Source: a bacterium
GTDB lineage: Bacteria > Patescibacteriota > Minisyncoccia > Phycocordibacterales > UBA5272
NCBI GenBank assembly: GCA_027482685.1
Contig: JAIXVU010000001.1
Coordinates: forward strand, 11-64,010
Length of the DNA stretch: 64,000 nucleotides
Direction: 5' to 3'
Position 1 is the first letter of the stretch; the number at the start of each line of letters is the position of its first letter. The notes under the pieces are model-generated. The model had not been told where the DNA came from. It saw only the letters and a list, made by a program, of their open reading frames with translations, and searched no databases. The translations under genes were made by a program, and so were the position numbers. Shown piece after piece: positions 3,363 through 54,284 of this stretch.

Positions 3363-3851
3363 ATGAAAAAGCTCCTTGGACAAATCGCATTCGTTCTCTC
3401 CCTGCTTTGCTTCGGCAATGCGTTCGCGCAACAAGTGATGTACTCTTTGCAAGACGGGAACGGACAACCTCTCGGCCAGATGAACATCAACTACAAGCCG
3501 AATGGCTACGAAGCCACGATGAACGGTGAGAAGATATCTCTGGAAACTACTCACAACACAGCAACAGTGACGATGGGGAAACTCGTCATCACCATGCCGA
3601 TCAACAATACCTTCTACCACAAGGAAGTTGATAAGTGGGTAGTCAGACCTGTCACCACGTCGTTTGGTGACAAAGGTGTCCACAAGATGCTCTACTTCGG
3701 GCTTGCTATATATGGCCGGCATTATCGTGAAGAACTTTGGTTGAACGGTCGCCTTTTCATGTCATCCTCCACGGTCATCGACCACAACGATCAAATCATC
3801 TGGTCATTTGTGAAAGATTCACATGGGGCACTCTCCCTCAGACGGCTCTAG
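3363..3851 (+). CDS. Hypothetical secreted protein (162 aa), GC-rich relative to flanks
   Basis: Signal peptide MKKLLGQIAFVLSLLCFGNAFAQQ. About 48-50% GC with C-ending codons, unlike neighbours. It sits on the opposite strand between def and fmt and has its own terminator. Confidence 0.6.
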   Translation: MKKLLGQIAFVLSLLCFGNAFAQQVMYSLQDGNGQPLGQMNINYKPNGYEATMNGEKISLETTHNTATVTMGKLVITMPINNTFYHKEVDKWVVRPVTTSFGDKGVHKMLYFGLAIYGRHYREELWLNGRLFMSSSTVIDHNDQIIWSFVKDSHGALSLRRL

Positions 3852-3866
3852 TATTACCTGAGAGCT

Positions 3867-3896
3867 GAGAGCCCGCTACATGCGGGCTTTTTCTTT
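3867..3896 (+). terminator. Rho-independent terminator agcccgc-tacat-gcgggcttttt
   Basis: GC stem plus T-run directly after the 3363..3851 stop codon. Confidence 0.7.
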
Positions 3897-4066
3897 TGTA
3901 TTCCCCACACCCAATCTCATCTTTTACAAAGCGCATCGGAGTTCGGTAGGCGAGATAGAGTGTATTTGTAAGCATGCAAATGACACGTCTTTGTAAAGGA
4001 TGAGGTTATAAAGAAACTATAAAAAATTTTACACGAAATATTCGTCGTATCGAACCACTTAATTTT

Positions 4067-4615
4067 TTACTTTGCTGCATTCCTCACTTCCTCCTCTGTA
4101 AATTCTTCTAAATCAAACCCATGATCAACAAAAAGTATCCCGTCTAAATGATCTATCTCATGTTGAAAGATATGTGCGATTAATCCAGATGCACCATAGG
4201 TGAATTTCTTGCCATTCTCATCGTAGCTTTCGATCGTTGCGCTTATCACACGCTTGGTCTTTCCATATATCCATCTCACTGAGAGACAGCCTTCTTGCAT
4301 TACGGCAGTTTTTTTTGATGCTTTTATAATTTTCGGATTGATAAACACAAGAGGTTTAGATTTAGCTGTCTCAGGATATGCATTAGGGGAGACAACAAAG
4401 ATGCGAAGTGACACACCTATCTGAGGGGCAGCAAGGGCGACACCGTCCTTTTCACGTGCAAGAGCCTTATGCATATTCTTCAAGACTTCAGAAAGATATG
4501 GAGAGTTGTATTCATCTTCTGTTACTTCTCGAGCAATAGCGCGCAGTGGGTTATCTGGAACATCGTCTATCTGAATAATAGAGGTTGGTACTTTTTGGAC
4601 TTTTTTGGTCGTCAT
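4067..4615 (-). CDS. def: Peptide deformylase
   Basis: Motifs GxGLAAPQIG, EGCLS and HEIDHLDG are present. Start chosen at MTTKK; the ORF track begins 9 codons earlier. Confidence 0.9.
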   Translation of the reverse strand: MTTKKVQKVPTSIIQIDDVPDNPLRAIAREVTEDEYNSPYLSEVLKNMHKALAREKDGVALAAPQIGVSLRIFVVSPNAYPETAKSKPLVFINPKIIKASKKTAVMQEGCLSVRWIYGKTKRVISATIESYDENGKKFTYGASGLIAHIFQHEIDHLDGILFVDHGFDLEEFTEEEVRNAAK

Positions 4616-4665
4616 GATACGTGTATATGTGCATTCTATCATATAGGTCTTTGTGCTACCATTGT

Positions 4666-5577
4666 CATATGACTAGAGATGTATCACTCCATACACATAA
4701 ATCAATATGGAAGAAAAAGAACGTTAGTCTCCTTACTGTTCTTATAGTAAGTCTTACAATACTTGTACTCTGGTATCAGACATTTAGCACAGTCCCAACG
4801 CCGTATCAAGATACCTATGTTAGAGAGACAGGTAAAGATATCACATTTACCTACTGTGGAGAGACGTACAGTTCTATCTCAGTTCTCATCCAAGGGATTG
4901 ATATTGTTAAACGCTATGTATCTCTTACGGATGGAAAATATTTTGCATGTAAAGATTGGAATGAAGGACGAAAATCTGCAGGCATAGAGAGAATAGTGCC
5001 AACAGTTCTTCCTCTTGGTGAGGGTGTATATAAAATAGTTCTTTCTCGTGAGATTAGTGAAGGCGTGAGCAAGCCTTTTCTAATCTTCATAGTTACTACG
5101 AGAACTAATGAAATTCTGACAAATGATAGAGAGTTCATTGGTTCGCTTAGTGAACCTATTACCACATTTGATGAATGTCTCGCAACTAAAGGCTCGACAG
5201 GAACCTACACCGAGAAAGAGCAAGTATGTACCGCACCAGATGGACGGATCTTCCCTGATATAAGCAGTGATTGGTATATTTCACGAGAGTTTGTGTCTGT
5301 GTCTATTATCCCACGCATGACATATACGAACCCTCTTGTAGTTAAGGTTTTTAAGAAAATACCTGCTTCTGTAGAAGTTACTCTTGTTAGTCAAGGAGAT
5401 GAGCGAGTTTTAGGTGGAGGGATAGTACAAGCAACAACATCAGTTCCTGTTACGCTACTAACAGCGACAACAACATACCCATTTGGAGATAGTTTTGATG
5501 CTTTTGTTCTTATAAAAATACTCGATGATACACAACGAGAGTTTAGAATTCCGATTAAAGTTAACCTAGCTAAGTAG
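4666..5577 (+). CDS. Hypothetical membrane-anchored/exported protein (about 303 aa)
   Basis: N-terminal basic stretch plus TM (LLTVLIVSLTILVLWY), then an extracytoplasmic domain with several Cys. No known motif. Start chosen at MTRDV. Confidence 0.5.
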   Translation, partial: HMTRDVSLHTHKSIWKKKNVSLLTVLIVSLTILVLWYQTFSTVPTPYQDTYVRETGKDITFTYCGETYSSISVLIQGIDIVKRYVSLTDGKYFACKDWNEGRKSAGIERIVPTVLPLGEGVYKIVLSREISEGVSKPFLIFIVTTRTNEILTNDREFIGSLSEPITTFDECLATKGSTGTYTEKEQVCTAPDGRIFPDISSDWYISREFVSVSIIPRMTYTNPLVVKVFKKIPASVEVTLVSQGDERVLGGGIVQATTSVPVTLLTATTTYPFGDSFDAFVLIKILDDTQREFRIPIKVNLAK

Positions 5578-5591
5578 CATTTTTTGCTTGC

Positions 5592-7463
5592 CTAACCAAT
5601 AAAAAAATGAAGAGGGTTAATTATCGGTTTACCGTCATAGACAACTCTTTTAATTCTTTCACGAAGCGCTTGGTTGTGTGACCACTCAGACTCCTTAATG
5701 TGAATAAAAAGCAACGTTACTCCACGACCTTGCTCGAACCATTCTATGACATATGTGCCGAGCTCTTCTTCTATTTTATGTTTCATTTGATCTTGTAGAT
5801 TATCAAACGATGCTTTGATAACAGTGTAGTATGGTGGAAGTAAGAAACGCTCTCGTTCAGAAAGCAGTGTATCAAACACCTCACGAAACGATGGTGAGAT
5901 GAGTTGCTTAATGACTGGCAGATTTTTCATACGAGTTTGTAATATCATACGACCGCCACGACTACCATCACTTTTTTGTTTAACTTTTTCTGCCATCTCA
6001 GTTACAAGAGTCAGCACCTTCTCATCGTTTCTATATTCAGGAAGTGCAAAGAGTGAGTCAAGAGAAAGTATAACAATACCATCAGCATGAGTTACAACAT
6101 TATGAGCCATCTCAGTTCCAATTAATACACCATACTTGCTCTCAGTCCATTCTTTATATGTTTTTTTTATTTTCGCTCGTGTTGGTGTACGCTCACCATC
6201 AATAACAAAGAGAGGAATTCCTAGTCTTTGTAACTCTTCCTCTATTCCTGTTGTTGCGATACCGAGAGTTGTCATACGCCACCCTCCGCAATGTTTACAT
6301 GAGAGCGTGCTATCATCATCTAGTCTAATAATATTCTCACACCCATGACATACGTAGGTTCTAACTCCACCGATTTTGTGGAGAACATATGGGCGGTTAC
6401 ATGTAGAGCAGGTGAAGAGTAGCCCGCAGTCAGAACATACGGTCGTTGGGTACATTCCTTTTCTATGTGAGTAAAAGAAGTAATGACCGCTTTCATTGAG
6501 TTGCATCATGTGTAATAACGAGAGAGACTGTTTGCTCAGATAGGGACTGCTTGTTTTATTCTCATCTATCATAGGTACTATTGTTATGCCGGCATCATTT
6601 CTATATTGCATAGGCATGACCTCATTTGCATCACGTGTTTTATGTAGGAGATGCGCGTTTAGTGAGAGCATATGAGAACCAAGAAGGCAGGTAGTACTTG
6701 TTCCCTTACATAGCTCCATCAAAACAAATCTCATATCATACCCACCATCTCCATGTGTGTAATAGTAGTGGCTGTGCTCACGTTCAATAATGACTAGACC
6801 AAGATCAACTCTTACCCACGGGAGAAGTGAAGGGGTAGAAAGGATTAGCAGTGGGTGTTGATTAGTAAATAGTTCGTTTTGTGCTTCTGTATATTGTTTG
6901 TCTGTAAGTCCGCTATGAAGTGGGATAACATATTCATCTATTCCGCGAGACAGTTCATTCTTTGCACATTCAAGATCAGTGATCGTAGGGAAGAATATAA
7001 CGATTGACTGTTTCTTAGAAAAAGCTTCGCGTACTGTTGTTTTATAATGAGTGATGCGATGTGCGTAACTTTGTTCAAGAAGAAGGATTTCAAATCCACG
7101 AGGATTAATTTGTGGTTCTATTTTGGTAATAGAAGCAAATGATCTCTCTGAAATGAGGTCATAGAGTATAGTTCCAATTGGTCGAAGTAAGTAGGATGAC
7201 GTATACGAAAGTGCATTCCATAATTTTTGATGCAAGAATTCTTTTGTGATTGTTTTTGAAACTTTTTTGAGCCCAAATGATGCGTGACGGAGTGACTGAC
7301 GTTCTTCTTCTGCTTTTTCTGATGTAAGAACAAGAGCGCGCGAAATACGTCTCTTTATAGTTATCTCCACTAAGTCACCTGCGTGTATATCATCCCTTCC
7401 AAAGTAGGAAAGTTCTTCGTATGGAATGCCGCTTGCAAGTGGGGCTACAGTTACGACGCGCAT
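5592..7463 (-). CDS. priA: Primosomal protein N' (PriA) homologue with degenerate Walker A/B motifs
   Basis: PriA-type Cys-rich zinc ribbon (CSDCG...CSTCN...CHGCE...CKHCGG). N-terminal 3'-DNA-binding/winged-helix region. At the expected Walker A position the sequence reads LLLEQSYAHRITHY (no GxGKT). At the DEAH-box position it reads VIIEREHS. Confidence 0.75.
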   Translation of the reverse strand: MRVVTVAPLASGIPYEELSYFGRDDIHAGDLVEITIKRRISRALVLTSEKAEEERQSLRHASFGLKKVSKTITKEFLHQKLWNALSYTSSYLLRPIGTILYDLISERSFASITKIEPQINPRGFEILLLEQSYAHRITHYKTTVREAFSKKQSIVIFFPTITDLECAKNELSRGIDEYVIPLHSGLTDKQYTEAQNELFTNQHPLLILSTPSLLPWVRVDLGLVIIEREHSHYYYTHGDGGYDMRFVLMELCKGTSTTCLLGSHMLSLNAHLLHKTRDANEVMPMQYRNDAGITIVPMIDENKTSSPYLSKQSLSLLHMMQLNESGHYFFYSHRKGMYPTTVCSDCGLLFTCSTCNRPYVLHKIGGVRTYVCHGCENIIRLDDDSTLSCKHCGGWRMTTLGIATTGIEEELQRLGIPLFVIDGERTPTRAKIKKTYKEWTESKYGVLIGTEMAHNVVTHADGIVILSLDSLFALPEYRNDEKVLTLVTEMAEKVKQKSDGSRGGRMILQTRMKNLPVIKQLISPSFREVFDTLLSERERFLLPPYYTVIKASFDNLQDQMKHKIEEELGTYVIEWFEQGRGVTLLFIHIKESEWSHNQALRERIKRVVYDGKPIINPLHFFIG

Positions 7464-7590
7464 ATAGTACTAGTGTATAGGTTTTAGGGGATAGGGGCTA
7501 GTAGGTAACAAAAAACCTTGCGTGTCATGAGGCTGAGGGGAAAAGGGAACAAGGGGATTGATTATACTAAAAGTGTCAAGTGTTGCGTAT

Positions 7591-7620
7591 CTCTCTAAAC
7601 CTCTAGCCACTATACCCTAG
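7591..7620 (+). repeat. CCCTAA/CCTCTAGCC leader motif upstream of mreB
   Basis: ctaaacctctagccactataccctag lies 30 nt 5' of the mreB ATG. Member of the recurring motif family. Confidence 0.5.
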
Positions 7621-7650
7621 TTACCACTGGTATGATAGAATGCGTTCTAC

Positions 7651-8664
7651 ATGGGATTTTTCTTCAAGAAACTCGGAATTGATTTAGGAACAGCAAACAC
7701 TCTTGTATATGTACCAGGGAAAGGTGTTGTACTTGTTGAGCCATCTGTTGTTGCGGTGTCACAATTTGATAACAAGATAATGGCCGTTGGAAGCGATGCA
7801 AAGGACATGATAGGGAAGACACCAGATTCTATCATTGCATATCGTCCTATGCGTGATGGTGTAATTGCTGACTATCGTGTTACAGAAGCGATGCTACGTT
7901 ACTATATTCATAAAGCACTTGGCGGGTTCGCGCTCTTTAAGCCTGATGTCATGGTATCAGTTCCAGCTGGGGTTACATCAACAGAAAGACGTGCAGTAAT
8001 CGAAGCTGCTCTTAAGGCTGGAGCTCGTAATGCATATGTTGTGAAGGAGCCAATCCTTGCAGCAATAGGTGCGGGGATCCCCATTCATGAGGCGCAAGGG
8101 CGTATGATAGTTGATATTGGAGGTGGGACCACAGACGTTGCGGTGATATCTCTTGGGGGTATCGTATGCAGTACATCAGTTAAGTGTGCAGGCAACAAAA
8201 TAGATCAAGCAATTATTGATTATGTTAAGAAGACCTATAATCTTGCAATAGGAGATCAAACTGCAGAAGAAATAAAGATACAAGTAGGAAGTGCATTGCC
8301 TGTAGAAGAAGAGCTTGTTATGAAAGTAAAAGGAAGAGACTTCATAGCAGGGCTTCCACGAACAGTAGAGATACGAACTAATGAAATTGTAAAAGCGATC
8401 GACAAGGAGTTGCGTGCGATGATAAAAGCAATCAAAGATGTTCTCCAAGAGACACCACCAGAGCTCGCTTCAGATATTATCGATAACGGTATCATCATGA
8501 GTGGTGGTTCATCAATGCTTAGACATTTCCCCGATCTCGTTCTACGTCGTACGGGGGTAAAGGCAGTCCTTGCTGACGATGCGTTCTTCTGTGTTGCAAA
8601 GGGGACTGGTGTTGCGCTTGAGCATCTAGACACGTACAAGCGCTCCATCTTCGCTAAGAAGTAA
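7651..8664 (+). CDS. mreB: Rod shape-determining protein MreB (actin-like), paralog 1
   Basis: GIDLGTANTLVY, DIGGGTTDVAV and actin-fold phosphate motifs. 337 aa. Confidence 0.9.
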   Translation: MGFFFKKLGIDLGTANTLVYVPGKGVVLVEPSVVAVSQFDNKIMAVGSDAKDMIGKTPDSIIAYRPMRDGVIADYRVTEAMLRYYIHKALGGFALFKPDVMVSVPAGVTSTERRAVIEAALKAGARNAYVVKEPILAAIGAGIPIHEAQGRMIVDIGGGTTDVAVISLGGIVCSTSVKCAGNKIDQAIIDYVKKTYNLAIGDQTAEEIKIQVGSALPVEEELVMKVKGRDFIAGLPRTVEIRTNEIVKAIDKELRAMIKAIKDVLQETPPELASDIIDNGIIMSGGSSMLRHFPDLVLRRTGVKAVLADDAFFCVAKGTGVALEHLDTYKRSIFAKK

Positions 8665-8947
8665 CTTGTCGAAAAATCACTGCATCTACTTCTTTGTAAA
8701 GATTTTTTTGCTCCTGTGATGTACAACTTGTACATCTTAGTCTCAAAAAATCTATACGCCTCGTATCTACAGCATTTTTTCAACAAGTGAGTGGGGGATA
8801 AAATGTGTAACTCTTTCGTTACGTTTGTTACTCGCTCGTCAATGTACAAGTAAGTACAACTCCTCGCCCGCTCCTTCCTGATTAAGATTTGCATCATTTT
8901 CTGCTCTCGTTAGAATTTACTACTAACTAGTTTGCTATACTGTTTCA

Positions 8948-9622
8948 ATGAAATCTGTCATCACATTCTCTGAGATTCCTCCACATCATGCTGTGCTTAT
9001 GGTGCATAAAGAGAGAGGCGCCGTGGGCGCCTCTCTCTTTGACGAATTAAAAGAGTTGTCTCCGGTTCATAGATTCTTTGACCAGTCAGTTCTAGATATT
9101 GAGACAGCGAGATATATATCGTCGTGGTCTAACACTCCATACAGTGGAGAAAAAGTTGGGCTTATTTCCTTCAATACAGCTGGACTTGAAGCACAGAATG
9201 CTCTCCTTAAAGTTTTAGAAGAGCCAAGAGCAGGTGTACGCTTCATCATTATTACAACACACAGAGAGCACCTCATCCCAACAGTCTTATCAAGGCTTCA
9301 TCAGATGAATCTTACACAAGATGTTCTTCATGATGAGATGTATACAAAAGCTTACACATTTCTCACAACTCCAAAAGTTAACAGAATGAATCTCAAAGAA
9401 GTAAAATTGCTTCTTGAAGAAGAAGATGAAGAGGGACGCAAGAAACGCGAGTCCGTCAAGAGTTTTATCCTCGCACTTACTGATGTTTTGAAAACTGAAA
9501 ACAGTGAATCAAGATATATTCTTGAAACGTTAGAGTTCGCTTCATATGCATCTCGTCCTTCAACATCAGGCAAAGCGCTCATTGAGTACCTTGCTCTTCT
9601 ATTGCTAGAGATTAGAAATTAA
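8948..9622 (+). CDS. holB: DNA polymerase III delta' subunit-like clamp-loader protein (short form)
   Basis: AQNALLKVLEEP sensor motif and IPTVLSR, with no Walker A, fit delta'. 224 aa. An alternative TTG start is possible near 9055. Confidence 0.7.
   Translation: MKSVITFSEIPPHHAVLMVHKERGAVGASLFDELKELSPVHRFFDQSVLDIETARYISSWSNTPYSGEKVGLISFNTAGLEAQNALLKVLEEPRAGVRFIIITTHREHLIPTVLSRLHQMNLTQDVLHDEMYTKAYTFLTTPKVNRMNLKEVKLLLEEEDEEGRKKRESVKSFILALTDVLKTENSESRYILETLEFASYASRPSTSGKALIEYLALLLLEIRN
9008..9040. repeat. Palindromic hairpin aaagagagaggcgcc-GTGG-ggcgcctctctcttt embedded in-frame in the holB 5' region
   Basis: Core agaggcgccgtRggcgcctct is identical to the intergenic hairpin at 284-322. Here it encodes KERGAVGASLF inside the holB ORF. 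Confidence 0.6.
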
Positions 9623-9663
9623 TGTACAATTTGTCTACTAATAAGGTATTAAATTTTGTATTT

Positions 9664-9693
9664 CCTAACCCCTAATCTCTATACCCTAACTAT
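9664..9693 (+). repeat. CCCTAA leader motif (cctaacccctaatctctataccctaactat) abutting the frr start codon
   Basis: Ends 1 nt before the frr ATG. No SD sequence is present. Confidence 0.55.
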
Positions 9694-10248
9694 ATGTCAT
9701 ACAACTTTACAGATATACATCAAAAGAAAGAGGCAATAATCGATTGGTTGCATGGAGAGTATCGTTCTATTTCAACGGGTCGTGCTACACCTCAAGTGCT
9801 AGATCTTGTACATATAGACATGTATGGGGCACGAACTGCTATAGCGCATGCTGCGAGTATTACAATAGAAGACCCTCGTACACTTCGTGTATCACCATGG
9901 GATAAGACAATTTTAAGCGGAATGGAAAAAGCTATTAATGATGCAGATCTCGGACTATCAGTTGCATCTGACGCTGAAGGGCTACGTGTGCATTTCCCAG
10001 CGCTCACCACAGAGACACGTCAGAAGCTTGTTAAGTTACTTAAGGACAGACTAGAAGATGCCCGTGTGAAAGTCCGTTCTATGCGTGAAGATGGTAACAA
10101 AGATATTGATGCCCGCGAAAAAGCAGGAGAGTATGGTGAAGATGATAAGCGTCGTTATAGAGATGAGATGCAAAAGATAGTAGATGAAGCTAACCAGACT
10201 CTTGAAAGTACTTTTGATAAAAAAGAAAAAGAAGTAATGGGGGAGTAG
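9694..10248 (+). CDS. frr: Ribosome recycling factor
   Basis: Full-length RRF signature (ISTGRATPQVLDLV...RVSPWDK...LRVHFPALTTETRQKLVK). Confidence 0.92.
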   Translation: MSYNFTDIHQKKEAIIDWLHGEYRSISTGRATPQVLDLVHIDMYGARTAIAHAASITIEDPRTLRVSPWDKTILSGMEKAINDADLGLSVASDAEGLRVHFPALTTETRQKLVKLLKDRLEDARVKVRSMREDGNKDIDAREKAGEYGEDDKRRYRDEMQKIVDEANQTLESTFDKKEKEVMGE

Positions 10249-10283
10249 AAGTAAGGAGTATACTATAACAAATAACTAAATTA

Positions 10284-11495: not shown

Positions 11496-11519
11496 TACTT
11501 TCAAAGTACAATACTCTTC

Positions 11520-46758: not shown

Positions 46759-48660
46759 ATGGCAAAAATAATTGGAATTGATCTAGGAACAACAAACAGC
46801 GCGGTCGCAATTATCGAAGGAGGACAGCCAAAGATAATAGAAAATATTGAAGGTAATCGTACCACTCCTTCTGTTGTATCTGTAAACAAAAATGGTGAAA
46901 GATCTGTTGGGCAGATTGCAAAGCGTCAAGCGGTAACCAACCCAGAGAATACTGTATACGGAGTTAAGCGATTCATGGGACATTCATTTACTGATAAGGA
47001 AGTACAAGATGATATACCTCGTGTTGCATACAAGCTAAAGAAAAGTGATAACGGAGGTGTGCTTATCACTCTTGGCGGTAAAGATAGTCGTCCAGAAGAA
47101 ATAAGTGCGATGATACTACAGAAAATTAAGGCAGATGTTGAAGCGAAGCTTGGGGAAACAGTAACTGAAGCTATCATCACAGTACCTGCATACTTTAATG
47201 ATGTACAACGTCAGGCGACGATTGATGCTGGTAAGATTGCGGGACTTGATGTGAAGCGTATTATTCCAGAACCAACAGCAGCAGCACTTGCGTACGGTTT
47301 TAACAGTACGAAGAATGAAAAGATTGCAGTGTATGATTTTGGAGGGGGAACATTTGATATCTCAATTCTTGAAGTAGGTGATGGTGTGGTTGAAGTAAAG
47401 TCTGTAGACGGAGACTCACACCTAGGAGGACGTGATATCGATCAGAAGTTCGTACAGTATATTGCAGAAGAGTTTAAGAAAGATCAAGGTATTGATGTTA
47501 GCAAGGATCCGCTTGCACTACAGCGACTCGATGAAGCTGCGGAAAAAGCAAAGCATGAGCTCTCCACTCAGATTGAGACAGAGATTAACTTACCATTTAT
47601 CACTTCAGGGGCTGATGGACCTAAGCACTTAGTGATGAAAGTAACACGTGCAAAGCTTGAAGAAATTTCAAAAGAGTTCATCGATAGATCTATTGAGATA
47701 ACCAAGCGTGCTCTTGTTAATTCACCATTTAAGAAAGAGGAAATACAAGAGATAATTATGGTTGGAGGACAGACGAGAATGCCAGCTATTGTTGAAGCGG
47801 TAAAAGAGCTTTTCGGTAAAGAGCCTAACCGCTCTATTAACCCAGATGAAGTGGTGGCGCTCGGCGCTGCAGTACAAGCTGGAGTACTACAAGGGGATGT
47901 GAAGGATGTATTACTTCTTGATGTTATTCCGCTATCTCTTGGTATTGAGACCATGGGAGGAGTAGCTACAAAGTTAGTAGAGAAAAACACCACCATTCCA
48001 ACATCTAAGTCTCAAGTATTCTCAACCGCAGCTGATAACCAGACATCAGTTGAGATACATATCACTCAAGGTGAGCGTCCAATGGCGACTGACAATAAGT
48101 CACTGGGCAGATTTATCCTAGATGGTATCCCACCAGCACCACGAGGTATGCCTCAGGTTGAAGTTACATTTGATGTCGATGCTAACGGTATCCTTAATGT
48201 AAAAGCAAAAGATAAAACCTCAGGGAAGGAACAGTCTATTCGCATAGAAGCATCTTCTGGATTATCTGATGAGGATATCAAGCGTATGCAAGCAGATGCA
48301 GAAGCTCACGCAGAAGAAGATAAGAAGAAGCAAGAACTTGCAGAAGTTAAAAACATTGCTGACACTATGGTACATACTGCAGAAAAAGCTCTGAAGGATG
48401 CAGAAGGAAAAATTAGTGATGATATCAAGAAAGAAGTTACAGATGCAATTGTTGAGGTTAAAAAAGCACGTGACGGCTCTGATAAGGATGCAATTACAAA
48501 AGTAAGCGATGCGTTATCTGCCGCAATGATGAAGATAGGTGAGGCCATGAAGAGTGCAAATGATGCAACTGCAAAACCAGAAGAACAACAAGCAGGAACT
48601 GATACAAAAACATCACCTGACACGACTCCAGAGGAACCGAAAACAACCCCACAAGCATAA
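46759..48660 (+). CDS. dnaK: Chaperone DnaK (Hsp70)
   Basis: [25 protein letters not shown] and [13 protein letters not shown]. Confidence 0.97.
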
Positions 48661-48689
48661 GGATTAGCTTTGTGTTAGAATAACTTCAT

Positions 48690-49775
48690 ATGGCAACAAA
48701 AGATTACTATAACGTTTTAGGAATTGATAAAGGTGCTTCAAAAGACGATATCAAAAAAGCGTTCTATAAACTTGCTGCAAAATACCATCCTGATAAAAAA
48801 GGAGGGGATGAGGCAAAGTTCAAAGAAATAAACGAAGCCTATCAAGTTCTCTCAGATGAGAAAAAGCGAAAAGAATACGACACCTACGGTCAGACGTTTA
48901 ATGGAGCAGGGCCTACAGGAGGATCTGGCTTCGGCGGATTCGGAGGATTCAATCAATCAGACTTTGCTGATATGCAGTTTGATTTCGGGGATCTTGGAGA
49001 TATGTTTGGAGATATGTTTGGATTTGGAGGTGGGCAGTCACGCCAGAAACGTGGACGCGATATCTCGCTTGAGATTGATGTACCATTTACCGAAGCAGTT
49101 TTTGGAACGGAACGTAACGTACTGCTTTCAAAAGTAAACACCTGTAAGACATGTACCGGTACAGGGGCAAAGACAGGTAGTAAGATGATTACCTGTACAA
49201 CATGTAATGGTCAAGGCAAGGTGCATGATGTGAAGAAAACGTTCATGGGTAACTTCCAGACTGTGCGTACCTGTGATGTTTGTCACGGTAAAGGCAAAGT
49301 CCCAGAAGAGCGTTGTAATGACTGTCGTGGAGCAGGGGTGGTGAATAGTCGCGAGGAGGTTAACATTACAATTCCAGCCGGAATTAATAATGGTGAAATG
49401 ATGCGTATGTCACAAATGGGTGAGGCGGTGTCAGGTGGTACAACAGGAGACCTTTATGTGAAAGTAAATGTTCAACCGCATAAACTTTGGAAACGTGAAG
49501 GTAATGACCTTGTATATACACATAACATTAAGCTTACTGATGCTCTTATCGGAGTAACTCATTCTATAGATGGACTAGATGGTAAGATAGATCTAGATAT
49601 TCCAGGTGGAGCATCCTCTGGTGAGATACTTCGTGTACGTGGTCGTGGTGTGCCGCATATTCATGAGAAGAATAAACGCGGTGATGTGCTTATCAAGCTC
49701 TCGATTGTTATGCCTAAGAAACTATCACGAAAAGCAATGCAGTATATAGAAGGGTTGAAGGAAGAGGGTCTCTAA
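48690..49775 (+). CDS. dnaJ: Chaperone DnaJ
   Basis: J-domain with HPD, a G/F-rich region and four CxxCxGxG zinc-finger repeats. Confidence 0.95.
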
Positions 49776-49803
49776 TAATGCTCAGTAATTACGTAACCAA
49801 CAA

Positions 49804-49829
49804 AGGATACCAGTAAAGGTATCCTTTTT
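49804..49829 (+). terminator. Terminator aaaggatacc-agta-aaggtatccttttt
   Basis: Hairpin plus T-run 30 nt after the dnaJ stop. Confidence 0.65.
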
Positions 49830-49963
49830 GGCTTGTGGGACTCTATTTAAATGACTCTTGTTTGTAAGTAACTAGCCATACTTTACTTTTGTTCTGTCGT
49901 CTTATAGTATTAATTATAATATCGTTCTTTCGTTTCGGTATGTTGTTAATAAGGAGCACAAAG

Positions 49964-50626
49964 ATGGACGCATATTCTTCATCAGAACCTGCTATTCAAA
50001 AAATAATCACGCGACTACAGGCATTTGCAGAGTATAGAAATGAGGTATGTGGTAAGAGTCAGCGTCAGCTAACAGATCAACTCCTTCATTCTGTAATTGC
50101 AGTACAGAAGCGTAGCCCGATTTTCTTCGTATTTGAGCAACGACAAGATGGATGGTTCATCATTGTTGATATGGACAAGGAATTGCCTGTCACTAGTCGT
50201 TGTGTGCAGGGTCGCACATTGTATGAGTTTAGTGTTACGTTCCCTGCTCTTAAGTATCAGAATAAAAAGAGAACGTTCGAAGAACATTTACAAGAGCTAG
50301 AGGAGTTTGAAGACTCATGGCTCTCTCTGTATGAAGGGTGTTGCAGGAAGATTCGTAAGTACGAACGTTGCCTAAACAATCTTCGAGATATAAGTAGTGT
50401 CGATGTATCGGTGTTGCGACAGTTATCTTCTGATCTACGGTTAGAGATGTCTCGCAAAACCACCGAGATGCGTATCGCAAGACTGCATTTCCCGAAGAAA
50501 AAACTTCGAGCTGACATCGACCAATGTCGATTGCGCCTTCAGGTTGTCATGAGGGAGCTTGAAAAAAGGGGGCATGGCATCAGGTTACTCTCAGCCCCTC
50601 AAAAGCCGAAACAACACAAACCTTAA
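49964..50626 (+). CDS. Hypothetical protein (about 220 aa), Cys/Arg-rich, GC-elevated with SD
   Basis: AAGGAG lies 7 nt before the ATG (MDAYSSSEP). No known domain. Own terminator. Confidence 0.45.
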   Translation: MDAYSSSEPAIQKIITRLQAFAEYRNEVCGKSQRQLTDQLLHSVIAVQKRSPIFFVFEQRQDGWFIIVDMDKELPVTSRCVQGRTLYEFSVTFPALKYQNKKRTFEEHLQELEEFEDSWLSLYEGCCRKIRKYERCLNNLRDISSVDVSVLRQLSSDLRLEMSRKTTEMRIARLHFPKKKLRADIDQCRLRLQVVMRELEKRGHGIRLLSAPQKPKQHKP

Positions 50627-50638
50627 AAGTATTACTTG

Positions 50639-50672
50639 ACCCCCCGCTACAGTTGTAGCTGAGGGGTTTTCA
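50639..50672 (+). terminator. Terminator ccccccgctacag-ttg-tagctgaggggtt
   Basis: Compound GC hairpin followed by ttttcac. Confidence 0.55.
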
Positions 50673-50733
50673 CTTTTAAGTATATTTTCTGTATACTTTA
50701 CATATTTACTAACGGTATATTATTTTCAATATC

Positions 50734-52143
50734 ATGATCGTAGCCATGGCTGTTGTTCTCTATGTTCTTGTGATGATACCAATAGGTCTCTATGCTAGTC
50801 GCAAGGTCAAAAATAGTGAGGATTATGTACTTGCGGGTAGGTCGCTTCCGATGTATATGGCTCTTGCGACTGTGTTTGCAACATGGTTTGGGAGTGAGTC
50901 TATCTTAGGAGCAAGTACTAAATTTGCAGAAGGAGGTTTCAGTAATGTACTTGAGGATCCGTTTGGGGCAGCATTATGTCTCATCATTGCTGGATTATTT
51001 TTTAATCGTAAGTTGTATAATTTCAGTTTTCTTACAATAGGAGATTACTTTAAGCATCGTTATAACACAATCATTGCTACGTTTCTTTCTCTTGCAATCA
51101 TCGTGAGTTATTTTGGTTGGGTGGGGGCACAATTTTTAGCACTTGGTCTCGTACTTTCTACTGTTATCCCAGGGCTATCACTTACATGGGCGATACTATT
51201 CTCTGCTGCACTTGTTCTTGTGTATACATTTTTCGGAGGAATGTACTCAGTGGCTATATTAGATACAATACAAACAGTTGTTATTATTACCGGATTGTCA
51301 GCAATTCTAGCATATGCACTAAACAAAGTCGGTGGTATAGATATTGTGCTTGCAAGTACACCGCCAGACTTTTTTAGAGTATTTCCTGAAAACAAAGACA
51401 GTCTCACATCATGGATTATTTTTGCAACAGCTATTATGACATTTGCTTTTGGTAGTATTCCACAGCAAGATGTCTACCAGCGCGCAATGAGTGCAAAGAA
51501 TGTATCTGTATCTGTGTGGGCGTCTGTATGGGCAGGGGTATTTTATTTTATTATTGTGATGATACCGATTGCAATAGCGCTTGTAGCACGCATGCTATAT
51601 CCTGATGTCTTAGCTAATGAGCCACAACAGCTCATACTCACTCTCGTTGAAGATCATATGCCTGTTGCACTACAGATACTATTTTTTGGTGCACTTGTCT
51701 CAGCTATCATCTCTACTGCTTCTGGTGCATTACTTGCTCCTGGAACATTACTTGCAGAGAACATTGTAAAGCCTTTCTTTACCGGAATGTCAGATAAGTT
51801 GAGGCTCCATCTTATACGTATGGCTATTATTATTGTTACTCTTGGGGGAGTGTTTATGGCGCTTTCACCTGACGCGCGTATCTACGAACTTGTAACAAGT
51901 GCGTACTCGGTAACACTTGTTGCTGCGTTCATCCCTCTAGCTGTTGGGCTTTATAGTACGCGTGCAAATAGCTTCGGTGCACTACTTGCTATTATTTTTG
52001 GTATTACAGTATGGCAGGGGATAGATTCAGTGATTGTTTCTGAGATACCGGCTGTATTTTCTGGGTTTGTTGCAAGTATTGTTGGTATGATTGTGGGGTC
52101 ATTTATTGGTAACTTTGTGAAGAAGGAAGAAAAGATGATGTAG
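50734..52143 (+). CDS. Sodium:solute symporter (SSS family, proline/pantothenate-permease-like)
   Basis: 13-14 TM helices. N-terminal SSS signature YVLAGRSLPMYMALATVFATWFGSESILG. Confidence 0.8.
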   Translation: MIVAMAVVLYVLVMIPIGLYASRKVKNSEDYVLAGRSLPMYMALATVFATWFGSESILGASTKFAEGGFSNVLEDPFGAALCLIIAGLFFNRKLYNFSFLTIGDYFKHRYNTIIATFLSLAIIVSYFGWVGAQFLALGLVLSTVIPGLSLTWAILFSAALVLVYTFFGGMYSVAILDTIQTVVIITGLSAILAYALNKVGGIDIVLASTPPDFFRVFPENKDSLTSWIIFATAIMTFAFGSIPQQDVYQRAMSAKNVSVSVWASVWAGVFYFIIVMIPIAIALVARMLYPDVLANEPQQLILTLVEDHMPVALQILFFGALVSAIISTASGALLAPGTLLAENIVKPFFTGMSDKLRLHLIRMAIIIVTLGGVFMALSPDARIYELVTSAYSVTLVAAFIPLAVGLYSTRANSFGALLAIIFGITVWQGIDSVIVSEIPAVFSGFVASIVGMIVGSFIGNFVKKEEKMM

Positions 52144-52228
52144 ATTTGTAAGCTAGACACTAACTATAAAAAGTGTTAGTGTGAAAGTGAATTTGTTCGT
52201 TCATCAATCTTCATTACGGAGCATCAAA

Positions 52229-52684
52229 ATGTTTCAGAATGTTACAAAAAACAAGCTAGAGCTTGGAAGTCTAGTTCTTGCCTTGCTGGGTGTAGTCATA
52301 TACGGTGGATGTATCAGTTTTGAATTTCAGGTTGGGTTTTTTGCTCCAGAAGGAAAGCCAAAAGAAGGTGCCAGCTATCTCTTTGTTTTTTTGTGTTCAG
52401 TTAGTTATTTTGTGCTATTCCTATTATGTCAGATGCAAGCAGGCATAGTTCTCCACTCACTGTTTGATGACAATGCCGAAACATTTAAGGGAAAAGTACT
52501 GGGAGTGGCCATTGTTTCCTTAGTAGCTATGTATATGCTATTTCAACTAAATCCACTACTAATCATTTCATACATGCTTTTGTTTATGGGTTCGTTTGGG
52601 GTTATGCTTAGTGAATTTCATAAAAACAAAAAACTTCGTCTATGCGATGATCCTCCTGAAGAAGAAAAGACAGAATCTACCTAG
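52229..52684 (+). CDS. Hypothetical membrane protein (about 150 aa, 4 TM)
   Basis: ATG chosen at MFQNV; the ORF track starts at an upstream GTG. Ends in an acidic tail DDPPEEEKTEST. Confidence 0.45.
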   Translation: MFQNVTKNKLELGSLVLALLGVVIYGGCISFEFQVGFFAPEGKPKEGASYLFVFLCSVSYFVLFLLCQMQAGIVLHSLFDDNAETFKGKVLGVAIVSLVAMYMLFQLNPLLIISYMLLFMGSFGVMLSEFHKNKKLRLCDDPPEEEKTEST

Positions 52685-52702
52685 CCTCACAGTTTCGTAC
52701 CA

Positions 52703-52728
52703 AAGCCCCTCAGCGATGAGGGGCTTTT
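52703..52728 (+). terminator. Terminator aaagcccctc-agcgatg-aggggctttt
   Basis: GC stem plus T-run. Confidence 0.75.
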
Positions 52729-52772
52729 GTTTTGTCTATGATTAGTTTACATAATTTGATAGAATAGAATAC

Positions 52773-53750
52773 ATGAAAAAAGTTCTTGTCTCAGGAGTTC
52801 AATCAAGTGGCAGGTTGCATATCGGTAACTATTTCGGAGCGATTAAGCAAAATGTAGAACTTGGCAATAGTGGAGAGTATGATAGTTATATCTTCATTGC
52901 GGACTACCATTCAATGACAACACTTACAGATGCCAAGGAACGTATAGAGAATACATTTGATGCAGCATGTACCTACCTTGCGTGCGGACTTGACCCATCT
53001 AAAGTTGCACTTTTCAAGCAGTCAGATGTACCATCTCATACCGAACTTACATGGATACTCTCAACCGTAACCCCGATGCCGATGCTGATGCTTGCACATG
53101 CGTTTAAGGATAACGAAGCAAAGAACAAAGATATCAATGCAGGACTCTTTACATACCCGGTGCTTATGGCATCAGATATTCTCATGTACAACGCACATGT
53201 TGTGCCAGTTGGTAAGGATCAAGAGCAACATATAGAGATAGCCCGTGAGATAGCAGGGAAGTTCAATCGTGCGTATGAGGAAGTCTTCACTATGCCACAT
53301 GCATACATCGTGAAAGATGTAGCAACTATTCCAGGAATAGACGGTACGAAGATGAGCAAGAGTAAAGGTAACACTATTTCATTATTTGGAACTGACGAAG
53401 AGATTAAGAAACAAGTAATGAGTATTGTGACTGATAGTGCACGCCCTGAGGATAAGAAAAACCCTGATGAGTCTGCGGTGTATCAAATACATAAACTATT
53501 CTTAACAAAAGAACAAGATGCCGTATTACGAAAAAAGTTTGAAGACGGTGGGTATGGATACAAAGAAGCAAAAGAACATTGCGCAGAAGCAATTATTGCA
53601 TTCGTCTCCCCGATGCGTGAGAAGTATAACTACTACCGCTCACATCCAGATGAGGTGTACGCTGTTCTAAACGCAGGTGCTCAACAAGCAGAATCCCGTG
53701 CCAAAGAAATGATGAATCGTGTACGTCACGTAACTGGGTTAGTCAGCTAG
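52773..53750 (+). CDS. trpS: Tryptophanyl-tRNA synthetase
   Basis: Class I HIGH (GRLHIGNYFG) and KMSKS motifs. 325 aa. Confidence 0.92.
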   Translation: MKKVLVSGVQSSGRLHIGNYFGAIKQNVELGNSGEYDSYIFIADYHSMTTLTDAKERIENTFDAACTYLACGLDPSKVALFKQSDVPSHTELTWILSTVTPMPMLMLAHAFKDNEAKNKDINAGLFTYPVLMASDILMYNAHVVPVGKDQEQHIEIAREIAGKFNRAYEEVFTMPHAYIVKDVATIPGIDGTKMSKSKGNTISLFGTDEEIKKQVMSIVTDSARPEDKKNPDESAVYQIHKLFLTKEQDAVLRKKFEDGGYGYKEAKEHCAEAIIAFVSPMREKYNYYRSHPDEVYAVLNAGAQQAESRAKEMMNRVRHVTGLVS

Positions 53751-53807
53751 TGCTATACCTACAAAAGAAAAAGAGAGTGGCTCTAGGCACACTCTCCCTG
53801 AGTGACG

Positions 53808-54284
53808 TTATCGTCTTATTGGATGCAGTAGATACCCAAACACCACGTCTCCCCAGTGGGCAAGATTATGCGGTGGTACGACGGCATTTGGTCGTGTGTC
53901 TATACCGCGCTTACGTAACTGAAAGCACAAATCCCTTTCTGGAGTACCTGTCATTAGAATTACTGGGACAGACATGTTATCGCAGGTAGAGAAAAGAGCA
54001 TCAAGCTCTCCCCAGATTTCTGAGGCATCATTTCTGCTGTCCCATGTCGTATCTCGTATAGAAATTGCAAACACTGGAATTTTTTCAAGCAGTCTATATA
54101 CCCTAGTTACGGCCGACGCTCCATGTACTTGTATTATTTCTTGACGAATCCTCGCGCGATTCTCTATGTGAGTAGATAATTGCCGAAGCCGATCTTCATC
54201 CGGTTCTACAATGATAAGGTTCCATGCTGTTTGAATAGTCGCAGGCATAGCGCCCTCCCGTATCAAAAACTTTGCAGAATTCAT
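53808..54284 (-). CDS. Hypothetical protein (158 aa), GC-rich with SD, possible degenerate receiver-like fold
   Basis: AAGGAAA lies 6 nt before the ATG. The segment LIIVEPDEDRL...IPVFAISIRDTTW...VPVILMTGTPERD loosely resembles a REC domain. Confidence 0.4.
   Translation of the reverse strand: MNSAKFLIREGAMPATIQTAWNLIIVEPDEDRLRQLSTHIENRARIRQEIIQVHGASAVTRVYRLLEKIPVFAISIRDTTWDSRNDASEIWGELDALFSTCDNMSVPVILMTGTPERDLCFQLRKRGIDTRPNAVVPPHNLAHWGDVVFGYLLHPIRR

Follow-up and report, generated by a model that had tools for sequence, protein, structure and literature searches.

Short genes with Shine-Dalgarno sites and predicted terminators of their own lie between predicted leaderless housekeeping genes in a patescibacterial genome

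ORFans of the classic kind and acquired genes usually have a higher AT content than the genome that hosts them. Phage morons are autonomous units of 'more DNA' that were first described in the phages HK97 and HK022 (PMC3594210). Genomes of the leaderless type, found in Actinobacteria and Deinococcus-Thermus, form 'group C' in the classification of GeneMarkS-2 (PMC6028130). Here we describe a 64-kb window, i.e., the whole stretch of DNA that was analyzed, in which 12 of 70 genes are preceded by a Shine-Dalgarno (SD) sequence and 58 are not. The reading that we favor, and that we consider fairly probable, is that two expression architectures coexist in this genome and that moron-like autonomous accessory units are exchanged within its clade. 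A literature search found no report of such an SD/leaderless split for Patescibacteria/CPR. In the reference genome collection, the window has a single relative, a metagenome-assembled genome labelled Candidatus Parcubacteria.

A preliminary description of the window had pointed out nine GC-rich ORFs (c1 to c9), most of them with strong SD sequences and private terminators; this observation proved to be largely real, GC content not being the best marker of the class. All nine ORFs are present at or near the positions given there, with small corrections for c4, c6, c8, and c9. Pfam annotation was available for 47 of the 70 genes, leaving 23 Pfam-less genes. SD sites were called when the duplex energy was -5.5 kcal/mol or lower, a threshold reached by 12.8% of random ATGs. 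They were found in 12 of the 23 Pfam-less genes versus 0 of the 47 annotated ones (Fisher p=1.3e-7), an association that is somewhat inflated because the SD partly guided start choice for c6, c8, unk101, unk88, and unk151; independent gene-caller coordinates in relatives gave the same result. The SD proposal was thus confirmed, in a stronger form than previously claimed. Eight of the nine candidates reached the threshold (c9 is weak), as did four ORFs not listed before (17931-18170 on the minus strand, 20535-20840, 45617-45883, and 52229-52684). The 58 non-SD genes, including all 47 annotated ones, extend over positions 343..62666 and serve as the background class.

Promoters, leaderless starts, and terminators were identified as consensus matches. 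Putative -35/-10 promoters lie 30-60 nt upstream of most SD-led starts; for promoters with a -35 element, the distances found were 34-68 nt. The proposal of private terminators was borne out, since strong terminators followed 11 of the 12 SD-led genes versus 7 of the 58 others (automated criterion, p=1.6e-7); the 12th SD-led gene is followed by a hairpin of -27 kcal/mol that this criterion overlooked, as it did the hairpin of greA. Strong terminators also occur behind some core genes (frr, greA, S9, and trpS). The terminator stem GCGCGACCGAAGGTCGCGC is identical at positions 18776 and 20846, and this hairpin also stands behind the core gene greA; the same stem was found four times in the related locus L007.

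The c1 unit (3279..3899, plus strand) lies antisense between fmt and def and consists of the promoter match TTGACT-17-TGnTATTAT (3279-3307), a leader of about 49 nt with the SD GAAAGGA, an ORF of 162 aa (3363-3851) predicted to form a 12-stranded beta-barrel, and a hairpin plus T-tract (3867-3891). In the c2 unit (12915..13423, minus strand), the promoter TTGACT-16-TATAAT (13423-13396) and the SD CAGGAG precede an ORF of 132 aa (13352-12954), for which gene callers give a 106-aa form, and a terminator at 12937-12915. The unit at 17179..18243 (minus strand) contains two genes: a perfect consensus promoter, TTGACA-16-TATAAT (18243-18216), precedes the SD-led, membrane-like orf79 (18170-17931; absent from the earlier list), which is followed by a weak hairpin (17893-17881), c3 (17757-17224, SD GGAGAG), and a terminator (17201-17179). 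The two signal-peptide proteins mentioned in the preliminary description are c1 and c3, both of which bear hydrophobic N-terminal signal-like segments. The newly recognized unk101 unit (20500..20875, plus strand) has the SD GGAGG, an ORF of 101 aa (20535-20840) with weak winged-helix-like matches and an ordinary GC3 (0.28), and the terminator GCGCGACCGAAGGTCGCGC at 20846-20864. The c4 unit (29813..30263, minus strand) comprises the promoter TTGACG-18-TAGTAT (30263-30234), the SD GGGAG, an ORF of 113 aa (30197-29856; the start previously placed at 30198 is out of frame), and a terminator at 29830-29813.

On the plus strand, the c5 unit (32778..33195) carries a promoter with TGn-TATAGT (32778-32806), the SD GGAGG, an ORF of 101 aa (32854-33159), and a hairpin plus T-tract (33174-33187), and the c6 unit (35502..35960) carries a candidate promoter (35502-35530), the SD GGAAGGAG, an ORF of 104 aa (35571-35885; 35571 is the most likely start, 35565 the alternative), and a terminator at 35932-35952. 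The c9 unit (38102..38523, minus strand) has the promoter TTGACT-17-TATTAT (38523-38495) and a weak SD; its ORF of 78 aa with two TM-like segments (38460-38224, start most likely 38460) overlaps by TGATG a hydrophobic ORF of 27 aa (38224-38141), and the terminator lies at 38122-38102. The unk88 unit (45617..45915, plus strand), also new, consists of the SD AAGGGTGA, an ORF of 88 aa with three TM-like segments (45617-45883), and the very strong terminator of -27 kcal/mol (45888-45915). The c7 unit (49892..50670, plus strand) includes a candidate promoter ending in TATAAT (49892-49920), the SD AAGGAG, an ORF of 220 aa (49964-50626), and a terminator at 50640-50670. In the likewise unlisted unk151 unit (52154..52727, plus strand), a candidate promoter (52154-52182) and the SD ACGGAG precede an ORF of 151 aa with four TM-like segments and ordinary GC3 (52229-52684) and a terminator at 52702-52727. 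The c8 unit (53763..54328, minus strand) begins with the extended -10 element TGATAGAAT (54328-54317) and a leader of about 60 nt with the SD GGGAGGG, followed by an ORF of 146 aa (54248-53808, start most likely 54248) and a terminator at 53798-53763; the divergent neighbor starts at 54359.

The start regions of the background class look different. Of the 58 non-SD genes, 25 have a -10 hexamer that lies 5-10 nt ahead of the ATG, versus 7.8% of control ATGs (p=3e-13), and 14 have a TGn-extended -10, versus 0.4% (p=3e-21). Because of this position of the extended -10 box, leaderless mRNAs are predicted for the core genes, which would be translated without SD pairing. One gene, unk302 (4669-5577), is missing in the relative L006, yet it is of the leaderless type with low GC3, and so not all variable genes are SD-led.

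The claim that the candidates are GC-rich was overstated. The GC content is 40.4% for the window and on average 41.0% (sd 2.6) for the Pfam-annotated genes, not 36-38% as described for the core; total GC is clearly raised only in c1 (48.7%), c2 (48.9%), and c4 (48.0%) (z about 3), borderline in c5, c6, and c8, and ordinary in c3, c7, and c9. Compared to a core GC3 of 0.32 +/- 0.05, GC3 is strongly raised in c1 (0.63), c2 (0.65), and c9 (0.62) (z about 6) and moderately in c5 (0.50), c4 (0.47), c6 (0.44), and c7 (0.41). The excess is limited to third codon positions, GC1 and GC2 being host-like. No excess was found for c8 (0.35), c3 (0.32), orf79, unk101, and unk151 despite their SD-led architecture; the class is not defined by GC content. 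The leaders of c1 and c2 have a GC content of 0.49 versus 0.31 for typical upstream DNA, and ribosomal proteins use more A/T-ending codons.

The two-class layout recurs in six related metagenomic genomes (L006, L007, L009, L011, L012, and L013); ORF calls in L006 and L011 are our own, those of the other loci mostly stem from independent gene callers. In the window pooled with five relatives (all except L011), 29 of 33 SD-led versus 25 of 113 other genes are Pfam-less (p=8e-12), and the mean GC3 excess over the host baseline is +0.116 for SD-led genes versus +0.009 for others (p=3e-7; p=9e-5 with the window left out). As described before, c1 splits fmt and def, which in the nearest reference genome are separated by 10 bp; in L006, where c1 is missing, the two genes are adjacent. 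PBP2 and greA are adjacent in L007 without the orf79-c3 unit, and in L011 trpS and lysS are neighbors with no c8 counterpart, while an unrelated ORF comes after dnaJ and c7 is missing. The c2 site is occupied by unrelated small genes in two relatives. Genes upstream of mreB2 are unrelated between the window, L007, and L012, and those downstream of dnaJ are unrelated between L011 and the window or L016. L007 contains a tandem array of five units of this kind, in which two 26-nt terminators are 100% identical and the T-tract of each terminator leads straight into the -35 element of the next unit.

The c1 family comprises 25 full-length homologues, in which 20 residues are invariant, and has a confidently predicted fold (pLDDT 87); it occupies five different contexts across six lineages. 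L007 and L012 are sisters (MreB2 96.6% identical) and share the same c1 site between SpoU and YgjP, yet their c1 copies are only 44% identical, whereas L007 and the non-sister L013 have c1 copies with 75% identity. The c1 tree is in conflict with core-gene relationships. Across genomes, c1 is accompanied by a conserved promoter, leader, and terminator; the purine-rich SD in the leader reads GAAAGGA, or AAGAGGA in the copy that diverges most. Upstream and downstream, the similarity ends at the -35 element and the T-tract, respectively. In all six genomes, which range from 35 to 49% GC, c1 exceeds the host GC3 baseline by 0.11-0.36; this offset regardless of host GC agrees better with an effect that is intrinsic to the gene or common to a pool than with a single recent import.

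The candidates had been said to match no known family, and indeed none had a match in Pfam, NCBIfam, PHROGs, or PADLOC. In large protein databases, c1, c2, and c7 had no homologue outside the clade and c2 none at all, making it an orphan; no homologue of any of the 13 proteins was found in phage and plasmid records. Therefore, no outside GC-rich donor is visible. c7 belongs to a fast-evolving family with conserved motifs, and in L016 a distant homologue (22% identical) directly follows dnaJ. By the yardstick of the preliminary description, which had named conservation of position across relatives with similar composition as evidence against its reading, c7 looks like an old resident. Given this position and the c1 site common to L007 and L012, the class is partly vertically inherited, and 'mobile' is not applicable to every unit.

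These observations were weighed against several other explanations. It is possible, albeit rather improbable, that no mobility is involved and that the SD-led genes are vertically inherited, lineage-specific, and fast-evolving, with leadered, SD-dependent mRNAs (e.g., for conditional or translational control), losses in relatives, and a GC3 raised by selection on mRNA stability or structure. The distant c7 homologue beside dnaJ, the shared c1 site of L007 and L012, the constant positive GC3 offset of c1 across hosts, the conservation of its SD and leader, implying functional constraint, and the A/T-ending codons favored by ribosomal proteins, with GC3 of small genes as a separate regime, would fit this explanation, but the higher c1 identity with a non-sister than between sisters, the five contexts of c1, and the unrelated genes at the same inter-block sites (upstream of mreB2 and downstream of dnaJ) argue against it. 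Moreover, def and fmt are conserved neighbors in many bacteria, and a gain of c1 between them is therefore more probable than its loss elsewhere. The original proposal of recent, independent single-gene acquisitions from an unrelated higher-GC donor, preceding amelioration, is unlikely. Its accessory insertions stand, c1, c3/orf79, c7, and c8 being missing at the syntenic sites of relatives, and the GC3 of c1, c2, and c9 about 6 sd above the core, the GC-rich c1 and c2 leaders, and the orphan c2 speak for it; its GC-rich foreign donor is not supported, in view of host-like GC1 and GC2, the lack of homologues outside the clade (for c1, c2, and c7 in large protein databases) or in phage, plasmid, and viral collections, the old, clade-wide c1 family with raised GC3 in six genomes, the c7 counterpart in L016, and the five genes that share the architecture without GC excess. 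An import of the GC3-high units from an unrelated GC-rich organism is not supported.

A dedicated integron- or transposon-like system, in which the hairpins would be recombination sites instead of or besides terminators, is very unlikely. Recurring terminator stems (GCGCGACCGAAGGTCGCGC twice in the window, four times in L007), the two identical 26-nt terminators, and T-tracts abutting the next -35 element are suggestive of it; however, in contrast to attC sites, these hairpins are short and perfect and run into T-tracts, in contrast to integron cassettes, the units have predicted promoters of their own, and the same hairpin stands behind greA. No integrase, transposase, or recombinase domain was found by Pfam in the window or the cassette neighborhoods, and no recombination sites, terminal (inverted) repeats, insertion scars, or target duplications were found, so that the suggested mobile cassette class lacks the elements that would define one. 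That the ORFs are non-coding, mis-framed, or derived from a chimeric assembly is barely conceivable: most lack homologues, some starts are ambiguous, and c9 has no clear SD, but GC periodicity of three bases is strong in c1, c2, and c9, the c1 homologues, invariant residues, and confident fold and the c7 motifs indicate genuine proteins, and the same junctions recur in contigs assembled independently for other samples and therefore are no assembly artefact.

According to the two-architecture reading that we favor, housekeeping genes with an extended -10 directly upstream of the ATG and no SD would give rise to leaderless mRNAs, and a second class would encode short, fast-evolving proteins, mostly secreted, membrane-bound, or of unknown function. 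This class would be built of autonomous monocistronic units, rarely of two genes. In each of them, the ORF would be preceded by a -35/-10 promoter and by a leader of 30-60 nt that contains a canonical SD, and it would be followed by an intrinsic terminator rich in GC. Since no signal has to be supplied from outside and transcription stops within the unit, such a unit may be tolerated between essential genes, often in antisense orientation, without disturbing them and be expressible wherever it lands, which is the logic of phage morons. The units would form the flexible part of the genome, with gain, loss, replacement, and relocation among related genomes, probably through exchange by recombination among clade members, while some, like c7, may persist long at one site. 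The GC excess at synonymous sites most likely means that the genes belong to a GC-richer exchangeable pool and have since been partly ameliorated, or that a GC bias is linked to recombination.

Like ORFans and acquired genes, the units are short, evolve fast, have a restricted taxonomic range and an atypical composition, and lie at synteny breaks; unlike classic ORFans, they are GC-richer, at synonymous sites only, and carry a complete, distinct set of expression signals. With integron cassettes they share the form of small single-ORF modules, each followed by a hairpin-forming sequence and sometimes arranged in tandem (here in L007), whereas integron cassettes are promoterless, have attC ends, and depend on IntI, and the units have their own predicted promoter, ordinary terminator hairpins, and no integrase. 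As in group C genomes, many genes (43% of the non-SD genes of the window) have a Pribnow box at a distance of about 6-10 nt from the start codon, and SD-led genes coexist in the same genome. In group C, however, operon-internal and leadered genes generally have an SD, whereas 0 of 47 annotated genes in the window do, operon-internal ones included, and the SD is reserved for accessory genes that lack annotation. Phage morons resemble the units in being inserted singly between two genes that relatives have side by side, in having their own promoter and factor-independent terminator (predicted here), in an often membrane- or surface-located product, in horizontal spread (which seems probable here), and, for a subset of the units, in a base composition unlike that of the neighbors. 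Unlike morons, the units have no phage genes or PHROG matches nearby and reside not in a prophage but among the housekeeping genes of a cellular chromosome (between fmt and def, PBP2 and greA, trpS and lysS); they also differ from their neighbors in translation initiation (SD versus predicted leaderless), and some appear to be long-term residents.

The window has a GC content of 40.4% and carries ~70 genes, nearly all of them on the plus strand. Pfam scans and Pfam annotations on matching public contigs revealed an ordinary housekeeping set: HPF, PPIase, fmt, def, two mreB genes, holB, frr, rseP, aminoacyl-tRNA synthetases, mreC, PBP2, greA, mraZ-rsmH-ftsL-ftsI, photolyase, DsbA, GGDEF, Fic, ychF, an ECF sigma factor, alaS, the S13-S11-S4-rpoA-L17-L13-S9 cluster, grpE-dnaK-dnaJ, scpAB, dacA, ftsW, and murG. 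The two mreB paralogues are 49% identical. The cell-division genes mraZ, rsmH, ftsL-like, and ftsI (21136-26373) have a photolyase gene and a methyltransferase gene behind them instead of mur genes, and ftsW and murG lie 35 kb from this cluster, after dacA and a GT4 gene. Exact contig matches to the window were confined to the Logan assemblies SRR16126875, -78, and -79 and an NCBI record of 129,980 bp; the candidate junctions recur in independent assemblies. The sole relative in the species-representative genome collection was the MAG Candidatus Parcubacteria bacterium (46% GC; 93% identity for MreB and 64% for Fmt). As Rfam and tRNA scans yielded a truncated tRNA at 1-63 as the only RNA gene, the GC-rich segments are not known RNA genes.

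The nine small ORFs of the preliminary description were present after small coordinate corrections: c1 (3363-3851), c2 (12954-13352, minus strand), c3 (17224-17757, minus strand), c4 (29856-30197, minus strand), c5 (32854-33159), c6 (35571-35885), c7 (49964-50626), c8 (54248-53808, minus strand), and c9 (38460-38224, minus strand). When the 17 nt upstream of each start codon were paired to an anti-SD that may differ from the host's own, with a cut-off of -5.5 kcal/mol or better, 12 genes were SD-led: c1 to c8 and four ORFs previously missed, namely orf79 (17931-18170, minus strand), unk101 (20535-20840), unk88 (45617-45883), and unk151 (52229-52684). All 12, some of whose start codons were picked knowing the SD position, are Pfam-less, and the cut-off was reached by 0/47 annotated genes (Fisher p=1.3e-7), which bears out the proposed contrast between strong SDs on small ORFs and a core largely without them. 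Since random ATGs reach the cut-off in 12.8% of cases, annotated genes are depleted in SD-like sequence. SDs are absent even from operon-internal annotated genes, e.g., mreC, S11, and S4. In the PPIase gene, for which gene callers placed the start at 1518, 8 nt past the HPF stop, the stretch 1518-1565 contains an internal SD-like alternative, a strong AGGAGG before in-frame GTG/TTG codons at +45/+48; no other annotated gene has one.

The SD-led genes are also self-terminated, as had been claimed: the terminator criterion was passed by 11/12 of them compared to 7/58 other genes (p=1.6e-7). These 11 have a GC-rich hairpin of -14 kcal/mol or better with a T-tract at their 3' side, and the twelfth has a hairpin of -27 kcal/mol that the criterion overlooked. 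In most units, each predicted to consist of promoter, leader with SD, ORF, and terminator, sigma-70-type -35/-10 matches (9-12/12 positions) were found with the -10 element ending 34-68 nt before the ATG, and one match is perfect (TTGACA-16-TATAAT). Promoter-like sites overall were not enriched compared to shuffled sequence, and the unit promoters are consensus matches; like the SDs and terminators of the units, they are predictions. The SD-led proteins are short (median 122 aa vs 266), and 5/12 of their genes lie on the minus strand compared to 6/58 other genes. Two have signal-like N-termini, in line with the two signal-peptide proteins reported before, and TM-like segments are present in three. 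That none matches a known family also held: searches in Pfam, NCBIfam, PHROGs, and PADLOC were empty save for weak winged-helix-like hits for unk101. No match to the 13 concatenated proteins was obtained by tblastn in phage and plasmid records, PDB sequence searches with c3, c7, and c8 gave none either, no relatives of c1 (alignment query), c2, or c7 were found in viral contigs, and none of the candidates is related to another. A receiver-like fold of c8 is unsupported, the single-sequence model with a pLDDT of 49 being unusable.

In the case of c9, only a weak SD is present, and the protein has two TM-like segments. A 27-aa hydrophobic ORF (38141-38224, minus strand) overlaps the c9 stop codon (TGATG) and precedes a terminator common to both, and therefore the two ORFs probably form a two-gene unit encoding small membrane peptides.

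The high GC content ascribed to the nine ORFs applies to c1, c2, and c4 in total GC, and the remaining ORFs do not stand out; the core value of 36-38% on which the claim was based is too low, as annotated genes average 41.0% (sd 2.6). The deviation sits at third codon positions (GC3), whereas GC1 and GC2 are host-like (0.49/0.34 for c1 and 0.51/0.31 for c2 compared to 0.52/0.37 for the core). Against a core GC3 of 0.32 +/- 0.05 (mean +/- sd), c2 reaches 0.65, c1 0.63, and c9 0.62 (z ~6); the excess is moderate for c5 (0.50), c4 (0.47), c6 (0.44), and c7 (0.41). In c8 (0.35), c3 (0.32), orf79, unk101, and unk151, GC3 does not differ from that of the neighbours. Both C and G are increased at four-fold sites of c1, c2, and c9, and C is increased in their NNY codons. 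Classical translational selection was ruled out as the source of the GC3 excess because the ribosomal protein genes are even more A/T-ending than the average gene and because C and G rise together.

Of the 58 non-SD genes, 25 have a -10 hexamer whose 3' end lies 5-10 nt upstream of the ATG, compared to 7.8% of control ATGs (p=3e-13), and 14 have a TGn-extended -10, compared to 0.4% of controls (p=3e-21). The same pattern is present in L006, L007, L009, L011, L012, and L013, which are loci from related metagenomic genomes. Judged by these sequence signals, the core genes look leaderless. The Pfam-less gene unk302 (4669-5577; 302 aa) has TGCTACCAT six nt before its ATG and is thus leaderless-type, with a low GC3 of 0.27. 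It is absent from L006 between the gene unk623 and def, and therefore not all variable genes are SD-led.

Several core genes carry CCCTARn heptads (telomere-like, G-poor) at 7- or 14-nt spacing in their short leaders, located at 7484 (minus strand), 7615, 9670/9684, 20885/20892/20906, 21597/21611, 28250/28264, 31423/31430/31437, and 40870. The genes concerned mostly lack a -10 box at the ATG (frr, rsmH, unk75, ychF, and S13), whereas unk623 and mreB combine the repeats with a -10 box; a cluster also lies well upstream of mraZ. The total of CCCTARn hits is not above that in shuffled sequence, and about half of them are sense-oriented within core-gene leaders; the heptads may be bound by a regulator or may act as a leader element other than an SD. 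Five tandem TATTAAC heptads (~38585-38625) lie directly upstream of the predicted leaderless promoter of the gene unk127, and ATTAAC-like repeats precede aspS (upstream of 18924) and, in L009, clpB (upstream of 17828). The 300-nt gap between ychF and the c5 promoter contains a 42-nt exact duplication (32560-32601 and 32720-32761, 160 nt apart; ~66 nt at 92% identity) with an internal inverted repeat, CTACGA...TCGTAG, and no further copy in the window.

The related loci were reached via c1 homologues and one reference genome, and their contexts are possibly biased by this c1 sampling. The genomes span 35-49% GC and contain both gene classes. In a pooled set of the window and five relatives, in most of which coordinates came from independent gene callers, 29/33 SD-led genes were Pfam-less compared to 25/113 other genes (p=8e-12), and the mean GC3 excess over the host baseline was +0.116 for SD-led (n=33) and +0.009 for other genes (n=113; p=3e-7, or 9e-5 without the window). 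L011, which was outside the pool, has the same two-class layout.

The core blocks show well-preserved synteny, with the units lying where it breaks. In L006, c1 and unk302 are missing; the absence of c1 from this site follows from a def-fmt gap of only 10 bp. Likewise, c3 and orf79 are missing from L007 because PBP2 adjoins greA there. The order in L011 is dnaJ, an unrelated 175-aa SD-led ORF, trpS, and lysS, with trpS and lysS as neighbours and without c7, the SSF transporter gene, unk151, and c8; its S9-grpE gap holds other genes and a c1 homologue. The reverse case is the holB-mreB junction, which has no insert in the window but in L006 accommodates two SD-led genes of higher GC3 with a terminator behind them. 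No homologue of any candidate except c1 was detectable in the fetched loci. At the site upstream of mreB2 occupied by c2 in the window, L007 (5853-7720) has five promoter-SD-small ORF-terminator units arrayed in tandem, in which the T-tract of each terminator abuts the -35 element of the next unit, and L012 carries a different SD-led ORF together with MarR and RND efflux genes. This position appears to be a hotspot of variable genes.

Some of the terminators resemble each other. The hairpin GCGCGACC-GAAG-GTCGCGC is identical at 18776-18794, after the core gene greA, and at 20846-20864, after unk101, with ~35 nt of flank likewise similar, and the GCGCGACC stem occurs four times in the L007 array (6186, 6976, 7336, and 7693), two copies being 100% identical over 26 nt. 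The terminators of c2 (12919-12933), c6 (35935-35949), and unk88 (45894-45909) share the core CGCGCC(GTA/TTTA)GGCGCG, and the 15-mer of c2 and c6 is identical on the plus strand although the genes lie on opposite strands. Terminators appear to be a small repeat family common to several genomes.

With 25 full-length homologues of 42-69% identity and 20 invariant residues, c1 is a real, conserved family; a metagenome scan with an alignment query returned one locus only. For the c1 protein, predicted to form a beta-barrel, a LolA/YmcC-like or porin-like fold is at most a candidate assignment after comparison with solved structures. Promoter, SD leader, and terminator are conserved with the gene, the promoter across four genomes, and the leader SD is GAAAGGA, or AAGAGGA in the most divergent copy. 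The -35 element and the T-tract mark the limits of similarity. The gene was found in six lineages and five contexts, namely fmt/def, SpoU/YgjP (L007 and L012), adjoining rbfA, ribosomal-protein cluster/grpE, and adjoining a trypsin-like gene, and is antisense to both neighbours except in the last context, where the gene downstream of it shares its orientation. Every c1 homologue locus examined in these six lineages belongs to a genome with the same predicted leaderless architecture, and in all six genomes the GC3 of c1 exceeds the host baseline, by +0.11 (L012) to +0.36. L007 and L012 are sisters (MreB2 96.6% and MreC 68% identical, compared to 85-87% and 35-36% with the window), but at the site that they share, the two c1 copies are 44% identical, whereas the L007 copy shares 75% identity with that of L013 and 64% with that of the window. 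This conflict between c1 and the core genes indicates that c1 is subject to horizontal exchange or allele replacement.

A supposed 60-nt direct repeat flanking c1 (spacing 720) was dismissed, its identity being only 46%. The terminator of c1 and the 3' end of def are separated by 175 nt of non-coding DNA; within it lies a 19-nt inverted repeat (3913-3931 and 3989-4007; 89% complementary, 57-nt spacer), which may serve as a terminator for def.

For c2, no homologue but itself was found among 5.8 billion proteins, and c7 has only four remote relatives (22-33% identity). The one examined belongs to a genome of the clade: in L016 it lies directly downstream of dnaJ and is SD-led and self-terminated as in the window, and for this reason c7 appears to be a long-standing resident that evolves very fast, and not a newcomer.

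The preliminary description had explained the ORFs by repeated acquisition from a donor of higher GC content. Accessory insertions, missing at the syntenic sites of relatives, are in agreement with our results; a GC-richer foreign donor is not supported. Import from an unrelated GC-rich organism would account for a raised GC content, but the increase affects GC3 only and not all codon positions, GC1 and GC2 being host-like, no homologues of c1, c2, or c7 were found outside the clade, and the c1 offset is constant across hosts. A GC-richer pool within the clade with subsequent amelioration would fit the graded GC3 of the units, the small excess of the L012 copy of c1 (+0.11), and the higher GC content of the c1 and c2 leaders compared to typical upstream DNA. 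Recombination-linked GC bias would also fit, as would selection on the unit mRNAs. Accessory genes whose GC surplus over the core is restricted to synonymous sites offer a test case for amelioration versus GC-biased gene conversion.

The class is best described as predicted autonomous, leadered, SD-dependent transcription units with flexible, fast-evolving genes, in a lineage whose core would be leaderless. Being self-terminated and placed antisense, the units would interfere less with the flanking essential genes, each of which would have its own promoter at the ATG, and unit exchange through homologous flanks with occasional illegitimate insertion would be the simplest assumption. Further-reaching, and in our estimation rather unlikely, is a functional split of the proteome of this candidate-phyla-radiation-like clade into leaderless, SD-free housekeeping genes and exchangeable, fast-evolving, SD-dependent accessory genes (secreted, membrane, regulatory), which would give the cell a channel for expressing, regulating, or quarantining its accessory pool apart from the core, with the GC3 excess as the signature of this pool. 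If the partition were genome-wide, a sequence-level rule would sort core from flexible genes in poorly understood uncultured bacteria, a group in which many secreted and membrane proteins are unknown (PMC10849945), and leaderless and SD-dependent initiation would coexist with a near-complete division of labour. It bears on the expression of newly arrived genes where native genes lack an SD, and on gene calling, since in such genomes it is easy to assign start codons and small genes wrongly.

A -10 box ~6-10 nt upstream of the start is the leaderless signature that defines GeneMarkS-2 'group C' genomes, whose remaining genes, operon-internal and leadered, normally use an SD (PMC6028130). The window resembles group C in having this box near the start codon of a substantial fraction of genes and differs in that its remaining annotated genes lack an SD (0/47). 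Our literature search on Patescibacteria and the candidate phyla radiation found no report of such a leaderless-core, SD-less pattern. Integron cassettes are promoterless and depend on a common Pc, whereas each unit is isolated, has its own promoter-like element, and is often antisense; the unit hairpins are short perfect stems (5-12 bp) with T-tracts and not attC sites. No integrase domain was present among the window's proteins, and no recombinase, terminal repeats, or target duplications were found. A phage moron is defined as extra DNA plainly added between genes that would otherwise be neighbours; it brings a promoter and a terminator of its own, and its GC content deviates (PMC3594210). 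The units are alike in having their own factor-independent terminator and in lying between genes that are adjacent in relatives (def-fmt, PBP2-greA, trpS-lysS), but they reside in a cellular chromosome among housekeeping genes and without phage context, and searches of PHROGs, phage records, and viral contigs gave no hit. Save for this chromosomal location, the anatomy and behaviour of the units, with putative promoters and a base composition that deviates in part of them, broadly match the definition of a phage moron, and with a genome-wide partition the moron concept would reach cellular chromosomes.
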